Origin: an uncultured Campylobacterales bacterium
Lineage (GTDB): Bacteria; Campylobacterota; Campylobacteria; Campylobacterales; Sulfurimonadaceae
NCBI GenBank assembly: GCA_964650175.1
Contig: CAZYTC010000007.1
Location: 484 to 64,483, forward strand
DNA: 64,000 nucleotides
Direction: 5' to 3'
Position numbers and translations under genes: made by a program. The notes under the pieces are model-generated. The model was not told the DNA's origin. It made no database searches and worked only from the letters and a program-made list of their open reading frames with translations. Below are positions 49,513 through 60,896 of this stretch, piece by piece; positions within the stretch are counted from its first letter, which is position 1; each line of letters opens with the position of its first letter.

Positions 49513-49740
49513 CTATTTGTGGTAAAATCTAATAGTTTTGGTGCTTTCGGGTTGATTTAGGACTTTTTTAAGCCATCCTTTAGGTTTTGTGGTGAAATTA
49601 GAGATTATGCTTGGTCTTTTATTAGCATATTTTTTATAGTTACTAAAGAGATTTAATCTGCCAAATCTACCCCTGCGAGGTGAAATGCATAAAAAAACCT
49701 CCTCTAGTGCTAATCTCTCTTTTTCACTCAAAACATCCAT
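49513..49740 (-). CDS. Small basic hypothetical protein
   Basis: 75-aa ORF. It starts 1 nt after the stop of the XRE regulator gene. No recognised motif. Confidence 0.45.
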   Translation of the reverse strand: MDVLSEKERLALEEVFLCISPRRGRFGRLNLFSNYKKYANKRPSIISNFTTKPKGWLKKVLNQPESTKTIRFYHK

Positions 49741-49741
49741 T

Positions 49742-49981
49742 TTAACTTCCCAATCTATTTATTTTTCTAACTACTCTGATTATCTCATCATCTTCTAACA
49801 TTCCTAGCATATCCATCACCGCTTTTGCTGCTTGAGGTTTGGCGTTGCCCAGCCTCCAATCTTGGTATGTACGCATGGAGATACCTAGTTGTGTAGCCAT
49901 CTCTTTTTGAGAGATCTTTTTACCATTATGCTGTGCCTCTACCGCATTGTGCAGGAGATTAAAAAGATCACTCATTTCCAT
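49742..49981 (-). CDS. XRE-family helix-turn-helix transcriptional regulator
   Basis: 79 aa. ISQKEMATQLGISMRTYQDWRLG is a classic HTH_3 core. Confidence 0.75.
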   Translation of the reverse strand: MEMSDLFNLLHNAVEAQHNGKKISQKEMATQLGISMRTYQDWRLGNAKPQAAKAVMDMLGMLEDDEIIRVVRKINRLGS

Positions 49982-50153: not shown

Positions 50154-50224
50154 TAATATAATTAATGTTATAAAATGTATGATTTCATTTAAAGGATATT
50201 TTTATAAAATTACTTGTACTATAT

Positions 50225-50923
50225 ATGTATAAAACAAAAAAAGGATTCACGATGAGATTGGTTGGGATATCTATTATGGTACTAGCCATTGCGATATTGT
50301 ATGGCGGTTGTGCAAAAGAGAGTTCAAGAGCACTAGAAGTTCCTAGGACTCATGCATCAAATAATGTTTATAAAGGCGAGAGAGCGTCACTATCTATTGG
50401 AGCATTTGATAATCGCTCTAGCTATATGAGAGGAATATTTTCTGATGGCGTTGATAAATTAGGCTCTCAGGCAAAAACAATATTGATATCACACCTGCAA
50501 CAAACAAATAGGTTTGTTATATTAGATAGAGATAATCTATCTCAGCTAAAACAAGAAGCAGGCTTTGCGGGAAAAACAAACTCTATTATGGGTGCAAAAT
50601 ATGTAATCACTGGCGATGTGTCAGAGTTTGGACGCAAAGAGGTTGGAGATCATCAGTTATTTGGAATACTTGGCAAGGGTAAATCTCAAATCGCATATGC
50701 AAAAGTGATTTTAAATGTGGTAGATGTAGAGAGCTCAGCAGTAGTGCATACATCACAAGGAAGCGGAGAGTATGAGCTATCAAATAGAGAGGTGATAGGA
50801 TTTGGTGGTACATCTAGTTATGATTCTACTTTAAATGGTAAGGTATTAGATTTAGCAATCAGAGAGGCTGTTGATTCATTGGTAAGTGCTATATCAGATG
50901 GTTCGTGGAACCCACACAGATAG
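50225..50923 (+). CDS. CsgG/HfaB-family outer-membrane lipoprotein (secretion channel-like)
   Basis: 232 aa. Lipobox LYGGC. SLSIGAFDNRS...LGSQAKTILISHLQQTNRFVILDRDNLSQLKQE...GAKYVITGDVSEF follows the CsgG family pattern. Confidence 0.82.
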   Translation: MYKTKKGFTMRLVGISIMVLAIAILYGGCAKESSRALEVPRTHASNNVYKGERASLSIGAFDNRSSYMRGIFSDGVDKLGSQAKTILISHLQQTNRFVILDRDNLSQLKQEAGFAGKTNSIMGAKYVITGDVSEFGRKEVGDHQLFGILGKGKSQIAYAKVILNVVDVESSAVVHTSQGSGEYELSNREVIGFGGTSSYDSTLNGKVLDLAIREAVDSLVSAISDGSWNPHR

Positions 50924-50930
50924 GGTATTT

Positions 50931-51284
50931 ATGAGATTAAGAGTACTATTGTTAGCTACATTGGTAGCATTTGTGTTGACAGGATGCGGTAGTTCATATA
51001 AGCCATTATATTATTGGGGCGACTATCAGCCTCAGATATATGCACACCTAAAAAATTCTCATAGCTCATCAGCAGAGCAGCTAGGAGCTATGGATGAAAC
51101 TTTACAGAAAGCTAGATCTAATGATTTACCTATGGGTCCAGGTTTTTATGCACATGTAGCACTATTGCATCTAGAAGATGGCAATTTCGATGAGTTTAAA
51201 AAACATATGGAGCTAGAAAAAGAGCTTTTTCCAGAATCTAGCCATTATGTAGATTTTATATTAAAAAATTTGATAAAAAAGTAG
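50931..51284 (+). CDS. DUF4810-family lipoprotein
   Basis: 117 aa. Lipobox LTGC. YYWGDYQPQIY..., PMGPGFYAHVALLHL...EKELFPES are typical of DUF4810. Confidence 0.7.
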   Translation: MRLRVLLLATLVAFVLTGCGSSYKPLYYWGDYQPQIYAHLKNSHSSSAEQLGAMDETLQKARSNDLPMGPGFYAHVALLHLEDGNFDEFKKHMELEKELFPESSHYVDFILKNLIKK

Positions 51285-51288
51285 TGAT

Positions 51289-51951
51289 ATGAGAGTATAT
51301 ATAATAGCATTTATTGCCATAGTGTCTGCTATGGTGTTTGGCGGATGTGCTAAGTCAGTAGAGCCATATGATTATAGTGCCTTTAGAGAGCATCATCCTA
51401 AATCTATTTTGGTATTGCCCCCGATAAATAACTCAAATGATATAGTAGCGACTCCAGCTGTTTTTGCTCAGGTAGTTATGCCACTAGCTGAATCTGGTTA
51501 TTATGTTTTTTCTCCATCATTGGTATCAGAGACATTTAAAAACAATGGCTTAACAGTACCAAACGAGATACACGCCGTGTCGCTACATAAATTAGATGAG
51601 GTTTTTGGTGCAGATGCGGTGCTTTATATAGAGATCAAAGAGTATGGCTCTTCGTATAAGATTTTAAGTAGTGATATAACTGTATCACTAAATGCAAAGC
51701 TAGTTGATATAAAAACAGGCAAGCTGCTATGGAAGGGCACCGCTAGAGCATCTAGTGCAGAGGGGAAATCTAATAATGGAAATATTATAGGTATGCTAAT
51801 TGGTGCACTAATCGATCAGATAGCCAATACTGTGTCGGATAATAGCTATAAATATGCAGGTATTGCCGATAATAGGCTGCTTTTTGCAGGTAGAAATGGT
51901 GCACTATTATATGGACATAGATCGGATAAGTATGCAAAAGAAGAGTATTAA
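51289..51951 (+). CDS. DUF799-family lipoprotein (GNA1162-like)
   Basis: 220 aa. Lipobox FGGC. SILVLPPINNS..., PLAESGYYVFSP..., FGADAVLYIEIKEY..., LVDIKTGKLLWKG. Confidence 0.75.
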   Translation: MRVYIIAFIAIVSAMVFGGCAKSVEPYDYSAFREHHPKSILVLPPINNSNDIVATPAVFAQVVMPLAESGYYVFSPSLVSETFKNNGLTVPNEIHAVSLHKLDEVFGADAVLYIEIKEYGSSYKILSSDITVSLNAKLVDIKTGKLLWKGTARASSAEGKSNNGNIIGMLIGALIDQIANTVSDNSYKYAGIADNRLLFAGRNGALLYGHRSDKYAKEEY

Positions 51952-51975
51952 AGAGTTTTAAGAAGCTACATCTAT

Positions 51976-51993
51976 TGCTCTCATTTGAGAGCA
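51976..51993 (+). terminator. Hairpin after the lipoprotein trio
   Basis: TGCTCTCA-TT-TGAGAGCA followed by TTGTTG, 25 nt after the stop codon. Confidence 0.45.
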
Positions 51994-52041
51994 TTGTTGA
52001 TAACATCTCTCTTAAAATACGAGAAAAATCAAACGCCTAGG

Positions 52042-52095
52042 ATTAATTCTCATAAAGCCACAAAATTCCGTCAATGGGCTACAATTATCAGTTAT
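52042..52095 (+). pseudogene. Short RhuM-family gene fragment
   Basis: AAAGCCACAAAATTCCGTCAATGGGC is identical to the KATKFRQWA-coding stretch of rhuM copy 1 (about 5503-5528). Only about 17 codons remain (..HKATKFRQWATIISY*). Confidence 0.65.
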
Positions 52096-52251
52096 TAGAT
52101 AGAGGTATTAAATATAGATTATTGCTCTCTGCTCACAGTGACTGCTCTTTGTTTTGATGGTAAGAGTTAAAAATTTATCTTTTCTCGTTTTTTATGCAGT
52201 GAAACTATTTTTAGATTGTGTGTGTTATAATAGTGCACTATAGGGGTTTTT

Positions 52252-53868
52252 ATGGGTAGCAAGAGGTATTGTATACTAGCATTTATTTTTTGGGGTTTAG
52301 TGGTGCTGGGTTCATATATGTGGAACTTGCACCTACTGGGTGAGAAACTATATAATCAATCAGTAGATCGTGCACAATTTGTTTTTAAGATGATAGAATC
52401 CACTAGGCTATGGAATGCAAGACACGGTGGAGTTTATGTAAAAATCAGTGATGAGACGCAACCAAACAAATATTTAAAAATCGAAAATAGAGATATAAAT
52501 AGCGTCGATGGAATGCATTTGACGATGATAAACCCCGCTTATATGACTAGACAGCTTATAGATGTAGTTACAGAGCCGAGCGATTTAAAACTACATATCA
52601 CTAGCGATAAGCTGATGAATCCGATTAATAAAGCAGATGAGTGGGAGAGTAAACAGCTAGAGAAGTTTAAAAATGGTGTTAGCTCATTTGCAGAGTTTAT
52701 AGATGATGGCGATAGTAAGATTTTTCGCTATATGCAACCGCTAAAGGTCGATAGTAGCTGTCTTAGATGCCACTCTCATCAAGGCTATAGTGTAGGGGAT
52801 GTGCGAGGTGGCGTAAGTGTCACTTTTAGCGTAGAGCCACTGCTAGAGCTAGAGTCGGCTCAGAGTCGAAATATAGCTATTAGTCATCTGATTGCGTGGC
52901 TATTACTGGGTGTTTTATCGACGCTTTTTATCTATAGATTTAGAAAAAATATCGTCAATCTAGAGCTTGAGAAGATACGCATCGAGGAGCTGGTATCAAT
53001 TAGAACAAAAGAGCTACAAAAATTTTCACACGCGATACACTATAGCCCCGTAACTATTGTTATTACCGATAAAAATGGTGCGATAGAGTATGTAAATCCA
53101 AAATTTTCTGAAACAACAGGCTATAGCTATGATGAGGCGATAGGGCAAAATCCTCGGATACTCCAATCAGGAAAGCTTAAAGATGGTATCTATAGAGAGC
53201 TTTGGGAGACAATTTTAGATAAGCAAGAGTGGCGTGGAGAGCTGTTAAATAGAACAAAAGATGGCACAGAGTATTGGGAGGATGCGAGAATTTCGCCGAT
53301 ATTAGATAGTGATGGCGAGGTTACCCATTTTGTGGCGATAAAAGAGGATGTTACGCTCAAAAAACTATCTCAAGAGAAGATTTTATATCAAGCACGCCAC
53401 GATGCATTGACAGGACTTGTAAACCGTAAATATTTTCATGAGCTACTATCTGAGGCTATGAAAAAACCTCTGGTACTACTCTATCTAGATTTAGATGGAT
53501 TTAAGATGGTAAATGACACCCTAGGGCATGATGCGGGGGATTTGCTATTATTAGAGGTGGCCAAAAGGCTTTCAAATCTAGTTCGCTCTAGCGATGTGGT
53601 AGCTAGGCTCGGTGGCGATGAGTTTGTTATTATGATGAGAAGCGGTGCGAGCATTGATGGTGCAAAAGAGTTGGCTGAGAAAGTTCTAGCATCTATTTCG
53701 ACACCGTTTGATATAAAAGATAATATGATAAAAATCTCTACATCTATCGGGATATCTATATCTAAGATGGATAAGAGTGAGCATGAGCTATTAAAAGAGG
53801 CAGATATTGCGATGTATGATGTAAAAGAGTCAGGTCGAAATAACTATAAAATCTATGGAAAAAATTAA
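52252..53868 (+). CDS. Diguanylate cyclase with DUF3365 (haem-c) sensor, TM, PAS and GGDEF domains
   Basis: 538 aa. ARHGGVYV..., INPAYMTRQL and CLRCH (CXXCH) fit DUF3365. PAS follows (ITDKNGAIEYVNPKF). GGDEF domain with RLGGDEFVIM. Confidence 0.88.
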   Translation: MGSKRYCILAFIFWGLVVLGSYMWNLHLLGEKLYNQSVDRAQFVFKMIESTRLWNARHGGVYVKISDETQPNKYLKIENRDINSVDGMHLTMINPAYMTRQLIDVVTEPSDLKLHITSDKLMNPINKADEWESKQLEKFKNGVSSFAEFIDDGDSKIFRYMQPLKVDSSCLRCHSHQGYSVGDVRGGVSVTFSVEPLLELESAQSRNIAISHLIAWLLLGVLSTLFIYRFRKNIVNLELEKIRIEELVSIRTKELQKFSHAIHYSPVTIVITDKNGAIEYVNPKFSETTGYSYDEAIGQNPRILQSGKLKDGIYRELWETILDKQEWRGELLNRTKDGTEYWEDARISPILDSDGEVTHFVAIKEDVTLKKLSQEKILYQARHDALTGLVNRKYFHELLSEAMKKPLVLLYLDLDGFKMVNDTLGHDAGDLLLLEVAKRLSNLVRSSDVVARLGGDEFVIMMRSGASIDGAKELAEKVLASISTPFDIKDNMIKISTSIGISISKMDKSEHELLKEADIAMYDVKESGRNNYKIYGKN

Positions 53869-53878
53869 AAGGAGTAGT

Positions 53879-54487
53879 ATGAATTATCCAGCGTTTTTTG
53901 ATAATGTGGAGAAAGTCTATATGATTGACCCACTATCTGCAGTTTTAGGGACATTTAGTGGTGGTGAGGTAGAGTTTAGCTATCTAGATGTGGTAAAAGC
54001 AGCAGGGCATAGTTGCCCTACAGTAGGTGGTGCATATTTGATGAGTTTGCGAGCATTAGAGGCACTCTATCCTAATGAAAAACCTCTGCGTGGAGGTATT
54101 AGAGTCGAGTTTAAAGAGCCTATGACAGAGGGCGTAGCAGGTGTAATTGCAAATGTAATCACGCATATCACAGGTGCTACAGAGAGCAGTGGATTTAAGG
54201 GATTAAATGGCAAATTTGCCAGACACTCGCTGATGAGTTTTGAGAGTGATATAGCATCATCAGCTAGATTTAGCAGGGTTGATAATGGTGAGAGTGTGGA
54301 TGTTTTTTATAATCCGAGCATCGTGGCACCAAGCCCACAGATGCAACCACTAATGCAAAAAATTATGGGTGGCGTAGCTAGTGATGATGAAAAAAGAGAG
54401 TTTGGCAAACTGTGGCAAGAGCGAGTAAAAATGATAGTTGTAGATAATGCTAAAAATAGTGATGTGATTAGGGTGGTTAAATTATAG
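53879..54487 (+). CDS. FmdE-like domain protein (tentative)
   Basis: About 202 aa. AAGHSCPTVGGAYL resembles the GHxCPG motif of FmdE/FwdE-family domains. A strong AAGGAG RBS lies 7 nt before the ATG at 53879. Confidence 0.45.
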   Translation: MNYPAFFDNVEKVYMIDPLSAVLGTFSGGEVEFSYLDVVKAAGHSCPTVGGAYLMSLRALEALYPNEKPLRGGIRVEFKEPMTEGVAGVIANVITHITGATESSGFKGLNGKFARHSLMSFESDIASSARFSRVDNGESVDVFYNPSIVAPSPQMQPLMQKIMGGVASDDEKREFGKLWQERVKMIVVDNAKNSDVIRVVKL

Positions 54488-55057
54488 TGATAAAAAATCA
54501 CTATAATCATAACGGCTAAGGTCTACGAAAAACTCTCCATCACGCTCTATGATGCGAGGGTCGCTTCCAAATCCTGCTTCAAAGCGACGACGAACATCTT
54601 TTCGCTCTTGTGATGAGAGTCCTATAAATTTTAGATATCTCTTTAGCTCTATAAGTGCTGGTTGGGGAGTTTCGATATCAACATCATGTACTTTTTGCTC
54701 ATTTGAGAGTAGCAGTTTTGTATTAAAAACCTCCAAAATACTCTTTAGTTGCTCATCTTTGGCGATATAAATATCTTCTATGCGTTCTCGCTCAGCAATT
54801 AGCATCTGCTCTTTATCGCCGATTAGCTTGTCGATTTTGCTCTCTAACTCTTTGATTTTTAGTTTTAGCTGCAGGTTCTCTTTTTGATAGATAGAGAGTA
54901 TCATCTCTAGCGTTGTTTTATCTTTTGGATTCTCTGTTTTTATATAAGCGATACCATCTTCTACTATATAATCTAGCTCTTTTGATTTGAGTTTTTGCTG
55001 CAGATGCTCTTTTGTGATGTTGTACTGCTTCATATATTCGCTGATAGTTTGTCTCAT
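54482..55057 (-). CDS. HTH-like / coiled-coil protein, partner of the minimal cyclase
   Basis: 191 aa. N-terminal ~40 aa are excisionase/MerR-like (ISEYMKQYNITKEHLQQKLKSKELDYIVEDGIAYI). A ~90-aa heptad coiled coil and a ~55-aa C-terminal domain follow. No TM segment. Starts 2 nt after the cyclase stop. Confidence 0.5.
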   Translation of the reverse strand: MRQTISEYMKQYNITKEHLQQKLKSKELDYIVEDGIAYIKTENPKDKTTLEMILSIYQKENLQLKLKIKELESKIDKLIGDKEQMLIAERERIEDIYIAKDEQLKSILEVFNTKLLLSNEQKVHDVDIETPQPALIELKRYLKFIGLSSQERKDVRRRFEAGFGSDPRIIERDGEFFVDLSRYDYSDFLSL

Positions 55058-55059
55058 AT

Positions 55060-55698
55060 TTACCTCACTTTTAGTAGCTTTTTTGGTGGCGGTATAATAG
55101 CACCTTGGTTCATCCAGATGAGATATCCTAGTCGCTCAAATCCGTGCTTATCGACGATTTTGTGCATGGAGCCTCGTTTGAATTTGCATTTAGCTAGTAG
55201 TTCATTGTATTGTGGAAAATTTTGTAAAAATATCTCAAATCGCTCAAATGATTTATCAGAGATAATCACTGTGTTTGAGATGAGGTCTTTTATCCCTACA
55301 TATCTAGCACACTCATTTAATCCATCGCCTACAAAGTTTTCTCTAGCTAGAACATCTTTGAATTTATAGATATTTCCTGTGTGAACAGCTACTCTGATAC
55401 CTTTGTAGTATGAAAACTCTTGCTCTATGAGACTAGAGAAGTGTGTAAAAGATAGCCCAAGTATGGGGCCAAAACCGCGTAGCTTTGGATCTAGGATAGA
55501 GTAAAATCCATCTCCTGTTGGGATGAGTCCTAAAAATATATCATCCATCTTAAAGCCAGAGGCACGAAGCATCGAGTTTATCATCTTGCGAAAAGTGGAT
55601 GATACATAGGAGATTATCTCTAGTTGCTCATCCATTTCAAGTAGTGAAAAGTCGATTATATCTATCAATACTATATCCGTAGTGATTAGTTTGCTCAT
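55060..55698 (-). CDS. Stand-alone class III nucleotidyl cyclase-fold protein (minimal cyclase)
   Basis: 212 aa. IVLIDIIDFS (cf. FxDIxGFT), IPTGDGFY (cf. KxIGDxxM) and IRVAVHTGNIY...NFVGDGLNECARY (cf. RIGIHTGxV...GDxVNxAsR) occur in the canonical order. No accessory domain. Confidence 0.65.
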   Translation of the reverse strand: MSKLITTDIVLIDIIDFSLLEMDEQLEIISYVSSTFRKMINSMLRASGFKMDDIFLGLIPTGDGFYSILDPKLRGFGPILGLSFTHFSSLIEQEFSYYKGIRVAVHTGNIYKFKDVLARENFVGDGLNECARYVGIKDLISNTVIISDKSFERFEIFLQNFPQYNELLAKCKFKRGSMHKIVDKHGFERLGYLIWMNQGAIIPPPKKLLKVR

Positions 55699-55801
55699 AT
55701 AATTTAGGCTCTTTATAGTTGGTGATTTATTTGTGGTGTTTGTGAAACTCTCATATAATATGATATCATATCTAAAAAATAATTAGTTTGAGGTAATATC
55801 T

Positions 55802-57247
55802 ATGATAAAGAGGACGAAAATCGTTGCAACTGTGGGGCCAGCGTCAGACTCACCAGAGGTTTTAAAATCGCTTATATTGGCGGGGGTAAATGTTTTTCGC
55901 CTCAATTTTTCTCACGGCACACACGAGTATCATCTAGGGGTTTTAAACTCTATTCGCCGTGCTATGGATGAGACTGGGATATTGGTAGGCGTGATGCAAG
56001 ATATTAGTGGTCCAAAGATTAGAGTTGGTAAACTAGCAGATGAGTTTGTGCTCTCTAGTGGCGATTTTATCGATTTTTATTATGAGAGCATTTTAGGCGA
56101 AAAGGTATCTGATGGATATTTCAAACTCAGCATCAACGAAGAAGGTATTCTCAGACGCCTAAAAGTAGATGATTTTATCTATCTATATGATGGGTTGATT
56201 CGTGCAAAAATCGTAGATGTAAATGATGTTTATGTAAGAGCTGAGATAGAAAATGCAGGTAAACTTACATCAAATAAAGGTGTGAATTTTCCAACTACTC
56301 CACTAGGTATTAATATCCTCACTGAAAAAGATAAAAAAGATATGAAATGGGGAGTAGAAAATGGTGTAGATTTTATGGCTATTAGTTTTGTGCAAAATGC
56401 AAATGATATGATAAATGCACGAGAAATAGTCAAATCACACGGCGGAAATACCCAACTAATCGCAAAGATAGAAAAATTTGATGCAGTTGAAAATATCGAT
56501 GAGATATTAGAGCACTCAGATGGGCTTATGGTAGCTCGTGGAGATTTAGGGATAGAGGTGCCATATCATCAGGTGCCAATCATTCAGAAAATGCTTATTC
56601 AAAAAGCAAATGCTTGCTCAAAACCAGTCATTACTGCGACACAGATGTTACTATCTATGAGCGAGAAAGAGACAGCTACAAGAGCAGAGATTAGTGATGT
56701 GGCAAATGCTGTTTTAGATGGCTCTGATGCTGTAATGCTCTCAGAAGAGAGTGCAGTGGGTAAACACCCACCACTAGCGGTTAAAACGATGGTTGAGACG
56801 ATAAAAGCGATAGAAGAGGTCTATCCGTTTGATAAGTTTACATTTGATTACAAAGATGAGAATGATAAGATTAATGAGTCTATCGTAAGGCTAGGCGATA
56901 CGCTAGGTTCTGATGGGATTATATCTATGACAACATCGGGTCAGTCTGCTAAAAAACTATCACGATATCGCCCTCGTGTGACGATTTATGCAGCTACGCC
57001 AGATAGAAATGTAGCTCGCTCACTTACGCTAGTGTGGGGTGTAGCACCTGCTTATATCACTCGCGAAACACATATAGAGAGCATACTATCTGATATTATC
57101 CAAAGCGGAATTAGACGAAATATTATCGATTTAGATAAAACATATCTATTTACTGCGGCGTATCCTATGGCTGATCCAAGAGCTACAAATATGATACGCA
57201 TACTTAGTCGCGAAGAGCTAACATTTTTTGGGGATTTAGATAGCTAA
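55802..57247 (+). CDS. pyk: Pyruvate kinase
   Basis: 481 aa with RTKIVATVGPAS..., NFSHG.., MVARGDLGIEVP. Confidence 0.97.
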   Translation: MIKRTKIVATVGPASDSPEVLKSLILAGVNVFRLNFSHGTHEYHLGVLNSIRRAMDETGILVGVMQDISGPKIRVGKLADEFVLSSGDFIDFYYESILGEKVSDGYFKLSINEEGILRRLKVDDFIYLYDGLIRAKIVDVNDVYVRAEIENAGKLTSNKGVNFPTTPLGINILTEKDKKDMKWGVENGVDFMAISFVQNANDMINAREIVKSHGGNTQLIAKIEKFDAVENIDEILEHSDGLMVARGDLGIEVPYHQVPIIQKMLIQKANACSKPVITATQMLLSMSEKETATRAEISDVANAVLDGSDAVMLSEESAVGKHPPLAVKTMVETIKAIEEVYPFDKFTFDYKDENDKINESIVRLGDTLGSDGIISMTTSGQSAKKLSRYRPRVTIYAATPDRNVARSLTLVWGVAPAYITRETHIESILSDIIQSGIRRNIIDLDKTYLFTAAYPMADPRATNMIRILSREELTFFGDLDS

Positions 57248-58845: not shown

Positions 58846-58949
58846 ATATTAAGCCATTTCTTATGCAATAAATATTTAATTGCCATTTTTTGTGATACAA
58901 TTAAAAAAAGTATTTAAAAGTGAATTATACTATAAATCAGGAGGTGCTT

Positions 58950-60896
58950 GTGAGTTTATTTGGTTTTGTAGGGGGATTATTTGGCGATAATAGAGATAAT
59001 TCTACTAATATAGATGGCAAGCAACCAGATGATAATATTTTATACAAGGTTTTAGATACCAACTCTAATCCAATACTACTTTATACTAGAAAAATGGGTT
59101 GGTTTTGGGCAAATAGAGCATTTTTTGCACTCTCTGGGTATAAAGATATTGAGCAATTTAAGAGCGAAAAAGAGAGTCTAAGAGATATTTTTGCATATGA
59201 GAGCGAAGATATTTTTACTGAATCTGATAAGACTTGGCTAGATTATCTAAGATCTGAGGGCATAAAAGATTATAGCGTCGGAATGGTAGATGGTGAGTCG
59301 AAGATGAATACGCTAGTAGCTAGAGTGAGTGTTATTAGAGACTCTGGCGAAGATTTATATATATTGCGACTAGATAATATTACAAATGTGATAAAACTGC
59401 GTGAGGATATGTCAAAAGTAGAGGAGTTGCAGGGTAAATTTCTCTCAAACATCTCACACGAATTTCGTACACCTATGAATGGTATTTTAGGCTTTATAGA
59501 TTTAATCGGTGGCACAAACTTAACAGAACTGCAACAAGAGTATATAACCTCTGCACAAAGCTCTGCTAGAAATCTGATGAATAATATAGAAAATCTGCTA
59601 GATTTAGCACAGATGCAAAGTGGAAAACTCACAGTAAGCAATAGCGATTTTAGTATCGTCCATGAGCTAGAGGATTTAGCTAGAGGGATTGTTCCAGCGG
59701 CTGAAGATAGAGATATTAGTGCACTATTTTTTATAGATCCAAAGCTACCAACAACGCTTACAGGCGATATTAGAAAGATAAAACAGGTAATATTAAATCT
59801 ATATCAAAATGCTCTAAAATTTACACCACCAAAAGGCAGAGTAACGATAGAGGCAAAACTGCTAAAGCGAAATACATCTGGTAGTTGTAATATAGGATTT
59901 AGTGTCAAAGATACAGGCAAGGGCATAAACAAAGATGAGTTAGCTCAAATAATCAGACCGTTTGTCTCGGGTGATCAAGCAGATAATAGACTAGGCGTAG
60001 GGCTTAGCCTATCTCATGGGCTAGTCAAATTGATGGGAAGCGAGTTAAAAATCGTAAGCGAAGAGGGCAGGGGCTCATCATTTAGTTTTGCACTCACGCT
60101 AGAGGGCTCTGTGGGTCATACGATGCAGATGATAAATAATATCCAAGTAAAAGTACTGCTACTAGATGAGAGTAAAATCGATGATGCAAACCATCTAACA
60201 AACTATCTACGCAGTTTTGGGCTATCTGTTGTAAAATCACAAACAATAGATGAAAACTTATATAAAGATGTAGAGTGCGTATATGTAGTAGCTAGCCAAG
60301 AGAAAATCGATTGGCTCGTGCCATTATCAAAAATCAAGCGAGAAAAGCGAGTTATACTACTGATAGAGTCTGGCGAAAAACTACAAGCTAGAATGCTTCA
60401 TGGTGTGGATGAGCCTCTATCTAAACCGCTACTGCCGTTTATGTTTATGGAGCATTTAACAAAAACATATAATATTCCAAAACCGATGGTCTATCAAACA
60501 CAAACACTTCAGCGAGGAATCCAAGCGTTAGTGGTAGAAGATAACCTTATTAATCAACGATTAATTACCCTATTGTTGCGTGAGTATGGGGTAAAAGTAA
60601 CTGTAGCATCAAATGGTGAAGAGGCTGTTGATGCTTGTAGATTAAACACCTATGATATTGTATTTATGGATATCGATATGCCTGTAAAAGATGGTATAGT
60701 AGCAACCCAAGAGATAAAAGAGGAAAAACGCTACACCAAAGGTGACAAGATGCCTATTATCGCTCTAACAGCACTAGCTATGGAGGGCGATAAAGAGCGT
60801 ATTTTAGCAGAGGGACTAGATGATTATATCTCTAAACCTCTAACTAGAGAAAAACTAGAAGCTGTGCTTCATAAATATTTGGAAGTAACTGTATAG
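58950..60896 (+). CDS. Soluble hybrid sensor histidine kinase/response regulator (paralogue 1)
   Basis: H-box SHEFRTPMNGI, HATPase (GVGLSLSHGLV), a degenerate receiver-like linker, and a C-terminal REC (FMDIDMPVKDG). An AGGAGG RBS lies 5 nt before the GTG at 58950; the track start is 58920. Confidence 0.88.
   Translation: MSLFGFVGGLFGDNRDNSTNIDGKQPDDNILYKVLDTNSNPILLYTRKMGWFWANRAFFALSGYKDIEQFKSEKESLRDIFAYESEDIFTESDKTWLDYLRSEGIKDYSVGMVDGESKMNTLVARVSVIRDSGEDLYILRLDNITNVIKLREDMSKVEELQGKFLSNISHEFRTPMNGILGFIDLIGGTNLTELQQEYITSAQSSARNLMNNIENLLDLAQMQSGKLTVSNSDFSIVHELEDLARGIVPAAEDRDISALFFIDPKLPTTLTGDIRKIKQVILNLYQNALKFTPPKGRVTIEAKLLKRNTSGSCNIGFSVKDTGKGINKDELAQIIRPFVSGDQADNRLGVGLSLSHGLVKLMGSELKIVSEEGRGSSFSFALTLEGSVGHTMQMINNIQVKVLLLDESKIDDANHLTNYLRSFGLSVVKSQTIDENLYKDVECVYVVASQEKIDWLVPLSKIKREKRVILLIESGEKLQARMLHGVDEPLSKPLLPFMFMEHLTKTYNIPKPMVYQTQTLQRGIQALVVEDNLINQRLITLLLREYGVKVTVASNGEEAVDACRLNTYDIVFMDIDMPVKDGIVATQEIKEEKRYTKGDKMPIIALTALAMEGDKERILAEGLDDYISKPLTREKLEAVLHKYLEVTV

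Follow-up and report, generated by a model that had tools for sequence, protein, structure and literature searches.

The 64,000-nucleotide stretch analysed here (the window), from contig CAZYTC010000007.1 of an uncultured Campylobacterales bacterium of the family Sulfurimonadaceae (assembly GCA_964650175.1), carries on its minus strand two adjacent genes, one for a small protein resembling the catalytic domain of class III nucleotidyl cyclases (55060-55698, 212 amino acids) and the other for a partner protein of 191 amino acids (54482-55057), which has a coiled coil and probably binds DNA. The cyclase is a strongly diverged subfamily, new but within a known enzyme class, and its fold and chemistry are familiar. 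The two genes are a strictly co-inherited, translationally coupled pair, which sulfur-oxidising Sulfurimonadaceae pass on vertically and keep at one fixed place in the chromosome. The cyclase is very probably a catalytically competent class III-type enzyme in a non-defence operon with this vertical inheritance. The whole account, a vertically inherited two-gene signalling operon in which the partner regulates the divergent cyclase in trans, has in our opinion about an even chance of being right.

The stop codon of the cyclase gene (TAA, 55062-55060) is followed by a spacer of 2 nucleotides (55059-55058) and then by the ATG of the partner (55057-55055). A putative ribosome binding site, GAGG (55066-55063), lies 5 nucleotides before this ATG. 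The listing of open reading frames (ORFs) and the sequence bear out the preliminary description of this DNA, which had given both ORFs and the gap of 2 nucleotides.

A strongly diverged class III cyclase domain

An AlphaFold2 model of the cyclase was built from an alignment of 27 sequences and reached a predicted local confidence (pLDDT) of 89.4 and a pTM of 0.87. In this model the entire protein is one cyclase-homology domain without extension, and it has no sensor or transmembrane domain. When the model was compared with the PDB by Foldseek, 139 matches were found at E <= 0.001, of which the best 50 were all catalytic domains of class III adenylyl or guanylyl cyclases (probability 1.00, E 1.5e-8 to 4e-7, TM-score 0.50-0.66 over ~200-220 alignment columns, 10-17% identity). 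These 50 include one Pycsar uridylate cyclase, a PycC structure (8jsz). The model has the beta-alpha-beta-beta-alpha-beta palm fold of cyclase-homology domains.

In sequence searches the protein alone or its close-family profile found no match in the PDB, and the protein matched nothing relevant in Pfam at E <= 1 and nothing in NCBIfam or, at E <= 1, in PADLOC-DB, including its PycC model. PADLOC and PHROGs searches with cyclase and partner gave no match of note. Homologues are listed as hypothetical proteins without Pfam domains and, where an organism is named, it is Sulfuricurvum. When 1.84 billion cluster representatives were searched exhaustively with HMMER, just 235 clusters were retrieved at E <= 0.001, and the distant relatives among them carry the cyclase family PF00211 (Guanylate_cyc). 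Residue conservation was counted over 62 diverse members of the broad family. PF00211 was matched at E <= 0.1 by seven of the 62, none of them from the Sulfurimonadaceae clade. Since the window protein itself has no such match, its link to PF00211 runs through intermediate sequences only. The profile of the 62 sequences matched 18 PDB sequences (E 3.5e-4 to 0.7), all of them class III cyclases aligned motif for motif. The model, the fold comparison and the family profile agree with each other, and they confirm the 212-amino-acid protein as a predicted minimal, strongly diverged class III cyclase domain with intact catalytic residues, the bare format in which the preliminary description had read it before suggesting the comparison by AlphaFold and Foldseek.

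The motifs that had been quoted as hallmarks of the class are IVLIDIIDFS (residues 9-18), IPTGDGFY (59-66) and IRVAVHTGNIY (101-111), and they are followed by NFVGDGLNECARY (121-133). They are present and are not a chance resemblance, their key positions being invariant or nearly so in the 62 members. In class III cyclases the two metal Asp residues sit on beta1 and on the beta2-beta3 hairpin. The first metal Asp would be D13 (codon 55660..55662, minus strand like those below), conserved in 62/62; LIDIIDFS corresponds to the consensus FxDIxGFT and in the family profile D13 aligns with FSDIVGFT and FSDITNFT of CyaC and RhGC. The second would be D63 (55510..55512) in a TGDG motif that aligns with TGDG of 3mr7, with G62-D63-G64 again found in 62/62. 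Further on (codons of N121 to R132, 55303..55338), GDGLNECAR aligns with GDTVNTASR of RhGC, which identifies N128 (61/62) and R132 (60/62) as the transition-state Asn and Arg of the motif GDxVNxAxR. In the C-terminal beta-hairpin (codons of K184-H185, 55144..55149) K184 is kept in 60/62 and H185 in 59/62. K184 is probably the Lys that contacts the triphosphate, a role assigned by analogy with the Lys that class III cyclases conserve at beta7-beta8, which we take to be its equivalent. With D13, D63, N128, R132 and K184 kept in 60-62 of the 62 members, the catalytic machinery appears intact. Q25 and G124 are also invariant (62/62), and Q25, H106 and H185 are conserved family-specific residues.

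The residues that specify the base are different. Position 59, four residues before D63, is the Lys/Glu base-specifying position and aligns with the Lys of 3mr7, and it is I, V, L or M in all 62 members. N121 (59/62) falls exactly in a column at which 5oyh, a RhGC mutant with converted specificity, differs from 6sir, with D in the first and C (Cys566 of RhGC) in the second. The purine-specifying pair is therefore I59/N121, and neither Lys with Asp/Thr as for ATP nor Glu with Cys/Ser/Gly as for GTP. This base pocket is neither of the adenylyl nor of the guanylyl type, so that the sequence does not predict which base the product carries. A 3',5'-cyclic mononucleotide is nevertheless its most likely kind.

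The known adenylyl and guanylyl cyclase domains of class III (Rv1625c, Spirulina CyaC, Catenaria RhGC, M. avium Ma1120, P. aeruginosa CyaB) share with the window cyclase the predicted fold, the order of the motifs, the pair of metal Asp residues, the transition-state Asn/Arg and the C-terminal Lys. The window cyclase differs from them in its identity of just 10-17%, in the missing PF00211 match, in the Ile/Asn base pair, in the absence of any sensor, transmembrane or signalling-helix module and in the extra invariant or near-invariant Q25, H106 and H185.

Pairing, distribution and synteny

We scanned one genome per species and found a relative of the cyclase in 144 genomes, and the loci analysed are the 80 listed of these. 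All 80 belong to Sulfuricurvum, Sulfurimonas, Sulfurimonadaceae or to metagenome-assembled genomes with looser labels (Campylobacterales, Campylobacterota, Epsilonproteobacteria, Helicobacteraceae and, in one case, Pseudomonadota). The partner adjoins the cyclase on the same strand in each of the 78 loci that have downstream sequence, the contigs of the other two ending at the cyclase. In metagenome contigs it is present in 65 of the 72 Sulfurimonadaceae-type loci with room for it. The two genes overlap by 11 nucleotides in 26 loci. In Sulfurimonas loci where pyk no longer adjoins, the pair is intact, and the insertions found in the lineage of the window fell beyond the pair and never between cyclase and partner. 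The constant adjacency that the preliminary description had suggested looking for was thus found, and with homologues across Sulfurimonadaceae its view of an orphan operon is not supported.

The surroundings are also conserved. Upstream, a methyltransferase gene is found in 65/80 loci, nth in 59/80 and pyk in 55/80. Downstream, the order in relatives is a gene for an Xre-like helix-turn-helix (HTH) protein of 77-93 amino acids, a gene of ~80 amino acids, HU (present in most loci), a large unknown gene, msrB and a PPIase gene. Identity of the cyclase to that of the window correlated with the identity of the partner (rho 0.88), of pyk (rho 0.77) and of the methyltransferase (rho 0.75), and not with that of nth (rho 0.10). 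No relatives of cyclase or partner were found on IMG/VR viral contigs, and none of the cyclase in phage and plasmid collections. The GGDEF and FmdE-like genes that stand beside the pair in the window are absent from all 80 related genome loci, indicating that this operon is a lineage-specific insertion that has come to separate the partner from the small HTH gene. The inserted element is therefore the GGDEF/FmdE operon and not the pair, which had been described as looking like an insertion and actually stands at a conserved position. By this fixed position and vertical inheritance the pair resembles a housekeeping signalling module and not an inserted anti-phage system.

The partner protein

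Homologues of the partner are unannotated. Its AlphaFold2 model has three structured parts, which are about equally conserved among 78 orthologues, and variable linkers. The N-terminal domain (residues 1-41; 54935..55057, minus strand) consists of strand 2-4, helices 5-12 and 16-24 and strands 29-33 and 36-40, with pLDDT of ~80-85. This predicted beta-alpha-alpha-beta-beta topology gives weak support to a winged-helix domain of the excisionase/MerR-like type. In Foldseek comparisons of the small domains with BFVD the named matches were mostly excisionase, MerR-like or HTH proteins (best E 0.07), and the N-terminal domain could be superposed on a phage excisionase with a TM-score of 0.77 and a root-mean-square deviation of 1.5 A over 43 columns, a match that is not significant. 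The PDB gave weak fold matches to ArsR, HlyU and BldC proteins, all at E >= 0.14, and Pfam, NCBIfam and PDB sequence searches with the N-terminal domain, also as a domain profile, were empty.

A long helix follows (residues 47-121; 54695..54919, minus strand), of 75 residues and with pLDDT up to 97, which probably forms a dimeric coiled coil and has weak matches to coiled-coil families. Its polar surface is unusually conserved (YQKEN, DKEQML, KDEQLK); among the orthologues 26 of its positions are at least 95% conserved, many of them polar. A linker that is disordered in the model leads to the C-terminal domain (residues 134-191; 54485..54658, minus strand), with strand 135-137, helices 138-145 and 149-162 and strands 169-172 and 175-179, i.e. 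with the same topology as the N-terminal one. Its signature RRF...G.D.R...G.F..D..YDY.D.L is invariant, and conservation reaches 95% or more at 16 positions of the domain. The two terminal domains were considered as internal duplicates, which was rejected at the level of sequence (hhalign probability <1%, no sequence similarity). The partner has no significant match in the PDB by sequence, by profile of its N- or C-terminal domain or by fold, and Pfam and PDB searches and the model revealed no transmembrane, TIR, cNMP-binding (cyclic mononucleotide-binding), GAF, nuclease or other known nucleotide-binding domain.

Much of what the preliminary description had said of this protein stands, including the small C-terminal domain, seen in the model, and the lack of transmembrane, TIR and cNMP-binding features. 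For its excisionase/MerR-like N-terminus the topology agrees, with fold matches that are weak (E >= 0.07) and no match in sequence, and the coiled coil is there as a long helix, of ~75 residues in the model and not ~90. Excisionase/MerR-like proteins have a beta-alpha-alpha-beta-beta domain, in some of them followed by a coiled coil (the RacA-type layout), and the model of the partner predicts a domain of this topology and then a long helix; the partner differs from them by the lack of any significant sequence or fold match and by its extra small domain at the C-terminus. To our knowledge no second, C-terminal small domain is known from excisionase/MerR-like proteins with a coiled coil. The architecture of the partner is previously undescribed.

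Companions of the cyclase in the wider family

The seven metagenome loci that lack the partner (L120, L141, L142, L145, L155, L160 and L164) are a marine subclade whose cyclase has ~46% identity and a Ser/Arg-rich N-terminal extension (e.g. ~3850-5610 in L142). There, after a conserved ORF of 156 amino acids, an upstream gene for a protein of ~367 amino acids overlaps the start of the cyclase gene by ~17-30 nucleotides. The genes downstream vary and include a response regulator and a histidine kinase with an N-terminus resembling the Tll0287-like domain. Three other relatives (P0246, P0250, P0252) have the cyclase domain fused to a C-terminal coiled coil rich in K and E. In the clade of P0251 (36% identity) a gene for a dCache-HAMP-GGDEF protein begins 1 nucleotide after the cyclase (L085 5001-7301, L086 and L095), and in two 73%-identical relatives (L096 and L097) the cyclase is alone. 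A functional link between cyclase and GGDEF was considered, in view of the convergent gene in the window and of the neighbour in the P0251 clade, and rejected: it is not conserved, the GGDEF gene being absent in the other Sulfurimonadaceae loci as well as in L096/L097.

More distant members are fused to other domains, giving TetR-cyclase (P0287, in which the TetR-type domain is DNA-binding), cyclase-NACHT (P0358), CYTH-cyclase (P0337/P0346), cyclase-alpha/beta-hydrolase (P0334) and cyclase-TPR (P0390) proteins. One soil relative (L088 1757-5249) lies in a putative three-gene operon beside a TIR protein. The nearest stand-alone outgroup, P0247, is known from a contig of 980 bp only and the metagenome scan gave no relatives of it. 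Homology among these companions was also sought and discarded: the fused coiled coils are unrelated to the partner in sequence comparison, and comparison of the partner, the upstream protein of ~367 amino acids and the proteins encoded upstream of the cyclase in soil relatives showed no relationship between any of them.

Proposed mechanism

Class III cyclases act as homodimers, form their two active sites where the subunits meet and use two-metal catalysis. The window cyclase would likewise be a homodimer in which D13 and D63 hold the two metals, N128 and R132 stabilise the transition state and K184 contacts the triphosphate. As it has no regulatory domain of its own, the co-translated partner would supply the regulatory function in trans. 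We picture the partner as a probable dimer built around its 75-residue coiled coil, each end of which carries a small domain resembling a winged helix; the conserved surface of the coiled coil would dock onto the cyclase dimer and control it, and through the two end domains the complex would be linked to DNA or to some other cue. Genes elsewhere would encode the receptors of the messenger, and the CRP-like proteins that are common in Campylobacterota are candidates. In this scheme we infer dimerisation, enzymatic activity, the contact between cyclase and partner, binding to DNA and the direction in which information passes.

That the partner is an input or regulatory module and not the sole receptor is suggested by the constancy of the cyclase while its companions change between clades (winged HTH-coiled-coil protein, 367-amino-acid protein, fused coiled coil, dCache-HAMP-GGDEF protein or none), and also by the fusion of distant relatives to typical regulatory modules, including the DNA-binding TetR of P0287. 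A role of the partner as regulatory subunit acting in trans on the cyclase is a tentative assignment to which we give somewhat less than an even chance. There is a precedent for a complex of this kind in CyaC-CycR-Clr of Sinorhizobium meliloti, where a class III cyclase is physically associated with DNA-binding transcription regulators (PMC10463352), and the TetR-cyclase fusion P0287 points the same way. The differences are that CyaC is a membrane cyclase, that the TetR- and CRP-type regulators are unrelated to the partner and that the contact of the partner with its cyclase is proposed only.

Several observations weigh against this account. Enzymatic activity, interaction of the two proteins and DNA binding are predictions. 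The window cyclase misses PF00211 even at E <= 1, the PDB matches of the broad-family profile are marginal, and the non-canonical base-specifying residues may leave room for a product other than a cyclic mononucleotide. The winged-helix assignment of the partner comes from predicted topology and from Foldseek matches, none of which reaches significance (E >= 0.07). Identity of the cyclase to that of the window follows the identity of the partner with a rho of 0.88, which is equally expected from shared phylogeny alone. The argument from fusions is architectural only, the fused coiled coils not being homologous to the partner. Finally, a phmmer search with an E. coli CRP query found no CRP-like gene in the 64-kb window.

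Alternative explanations

The main rival makes the partner the receptor: the cyclic nucleotide would bind one of its small terminal domains and switch DNA binding, so that the two genes would be a self-contained pair of messenger and transcription factor. Strict pairing and coupled translation would be expected of such a pair, the terminal domains are winged-helix-like in topology and the invariant charged and aromatic signature of the C-terminal domain (RRF, G.D.R, YDY) could form a ligand pocket. However, neither a cNMP-binding nor a GAF nor any other known nucleotide-binding domain was detected in Pfam and PDB searches, and the cyclases at 46% identity exist without the partner and among unrelated neighbours, so that at least this subclade requires another receptor. 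We consider the receptor role unlikely. A related possibility, distinctly more doubtful, is that the cyclase makes a non-canonical cyclic nucleotide such as cUMP or cCMP, or another product that the Ile/Asn base pocket allows, as a housekeeping messenger of free-living Sulfurimonadaceae that is read by a previously unrecognised nucleotide-binding domain in the partner; if true, it would be the first physiological, non-defence role of such a messenger in bacteria and would come with a new receptor fold. It is also unlikely, slightly less so than this last possibility, that the cyclase-fold protein makes no cyclic mononucleotide at all, as a nucleotide-binding pseudo-enzyme or as a nucleotidyltransferase that produces a linear or cyclic oligonucleotide or nucleotidylates a protein, for instance the partner. 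The palm fold is common to class III cyclases, GGDEF and Cas10 enzymes, which leaves room for such an activity, and the non-canonical I59/N121, the family-specific invariant Q25, H106 and H185 and the missing PF00211 match could be read in the same sense. Against it, all residues needed for class III catalysis are conserved, and invariance of both metal Asp residues and of the Asn/Arg pair is not what one expects of a pseudo-enzyme; the best 50 of the 139 fold matches are mononucleotide cyclases, with no GGDEF or Cas10 enzyme among them.

The two genes might also be functionally independent, the partner being a coiled-coil DNA-binding protein of RacA-type layout associated with the chromosome or the cell pole. 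DNA-anchoring structural proteins commonly have a winged-helix-like domain at the N-terminus and a long coiled coil after it, and in relatives HU and the small HTH gene, which is highly conserved, follow a short way 3' of the pair. This is improbable given the adjacency in 78/78 loci, the frequent overlap by 11 nucleotides and the persistence of the pair where pyk has moved away or where insertions have come near without splitting it. By far the least probable is the reading suggested in the preliminary description, by which the pair would serve abortive infection as a Pycsar-like or other cyclase-based system whose effector is new. The bare format of the cyclase and the presence of 8jsz among its fold matches recall such systems, and the relatives at ~22-34% identity, with the cyclase-NACHT fusion and the TIR neighbour, recall the published 'immune clade 1' (bioRxiv 10.64898/2026.08.12.744502). 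Pycsar PycC and Pucsar PucC are indeed stand-alone cyclases of ~200 amino acids with non-canonical base residues (PMC11224242; bioRxiv 10.64898/2026.08.12.744502), like the window cyclase, which differs from them in having no PADLOC match and no adjoining CNBD-TIR or transmembrane effector. Immune cyclases are patchy and fast-evolving, and each of their cNMP cyclase clades has physiological outgroups (bioRxiv 10.64898/2026.08.12.744502). The pair, in contrast, is found in 78/78 loci with room, at a conserved position, mostly beside housekeeping genes with several of which it diverges in step, and no relatives were found on viral contigs or, for the cyclase, in phage and plasmid collections. 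The partner has no transmembrane, TIR, CNBD or nuclease domain and is no known Pycsar effector, and the neighbourhood, which had been proposed for inspection as a possible defence island, is not one, its genes being pyk, the methyltransferase, nth, HU, msrB and a PPIase. A defence role of the pair is essentially excluded. The defence-like look is confined to remote members of the family, some branches of which may be immune, as they fit the published pattern of immune clades with physiological outgroups.

Cyclic nucleotides in Campylobacterota

A published survey counted CHASE2 adenylate cyclases in 21% of Campylobacterota and found that 86% have CRP-like proteins (PMC9239204), so that the remark in the preliminary description that the model Campylobacter and Helicobacter species are not known for cyclic mononucleotide signalling needs qualifying. 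The survey that gave these figures was done with PF00211 and PF01295, and the CRP homologues were therefore judged unlikely to sense cAMP (PMC9239204). The CHASE2 enzyme is a cyclic-nucleotide cyclase from the same phylum as that of the window, with a CHASE2 sensor and detectable by PF00211; its gene is clustered with those for a phosphodiesterase, FecR and TPR proteins and appears from several signs to have been transferred horizontally (PMC9239204). The window cyclase differs from it in having no sensor and another partner, and it is missed by a PF00211/PF01295 survey. Its family is invisible to the standard Pfam cyclase models and hence was missed by annotation and by the phylum-wide survey (PMC9239204), and it was found, with the complete class III catalytic set, in every sampled genome of the Sulfuricurvum/Sulfurimonas type. 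If it is active, this abundant group of environmental sulfur oxidisers would have an unrecognised cyclic-nucleotide pathway, the inference of an 'orphan CRP' would need another look for Sulfurimonadaceae, and a minimal cyclase would be controlled by a separate coiled-coil subunit in place of a sensor fused to it. With its unusual base pocket the family is also a candidate producer of a non-standard messenger.

Neighbouring genes and other features of the window

On the 3' side, the partner gene meets a convergent FmdE-like ORF (53855-54487, plus strand), which overlaps its end by 6 nucleotides and reaches 22.2 bits in Pfam, just under the cut-off of 22.9. Directly before this ORF lies a Tll0287-PAS-GGDEF gene (52252-53868, plus strand). 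On the other side, pyk (55802-57247, plus strand) is divergent from the cyclase gene. The overlap of 6 nucleotides and the divergent pyk are both seen in the sequence as they had been described.

The divergent spacer between cyclase and pyk (55699-55801, 103 bp) is the presumed site of both promoters. A promoter scan of it gave no more sites than shuffled sequences and no promoter was assigned, and the repeats in it are trivial ones only. In 31/56 spacers of the Sulfuricurvum type (L005-L052) there is an element CTCAG-N4-5-T(T/A)TAGA, located ~50-75 nucleotides before the start of the cyclase gene and adjoining on the 5' side a TACAAT-like -10 box, which could be an operator or an extended promoter. 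The corresponding spacer of the window does not have this element.

On the far side of the GGDEF gene, a stretch of ~2 kb (50164-52201) includes two ORFs for lipoprotein-like products (50886-51284 and 51289-51951). Contig L001 from a metagenome, otherwise 99.5% identical, has just 96 bp there, indicating a strain-level indel. The Xre-like HTH protein of the window (49742-49975, minus strand, 77 amino acids) matches Pfam HTH_3 at E 3.7e-4, below the cut-off, and is 91-93% identical to its Sulfuricurvum orthologues versus 57-75% for the neighbouring genes. In relatives its gene lies ~270 nucleotides 3' of the partner and is followed by the gene of ~80 amino acids (49513-49740 in the window) and by HU. 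Beyond pyk, the ORF at 58920-60896 (plus strand) resembles a hybrid histidine kinase-response regulator (HisKA, HATPase_c, Response_reg) found on the near-identical contigs L001 and L002, which carry a second hybrid kinase gene directly beside the first.

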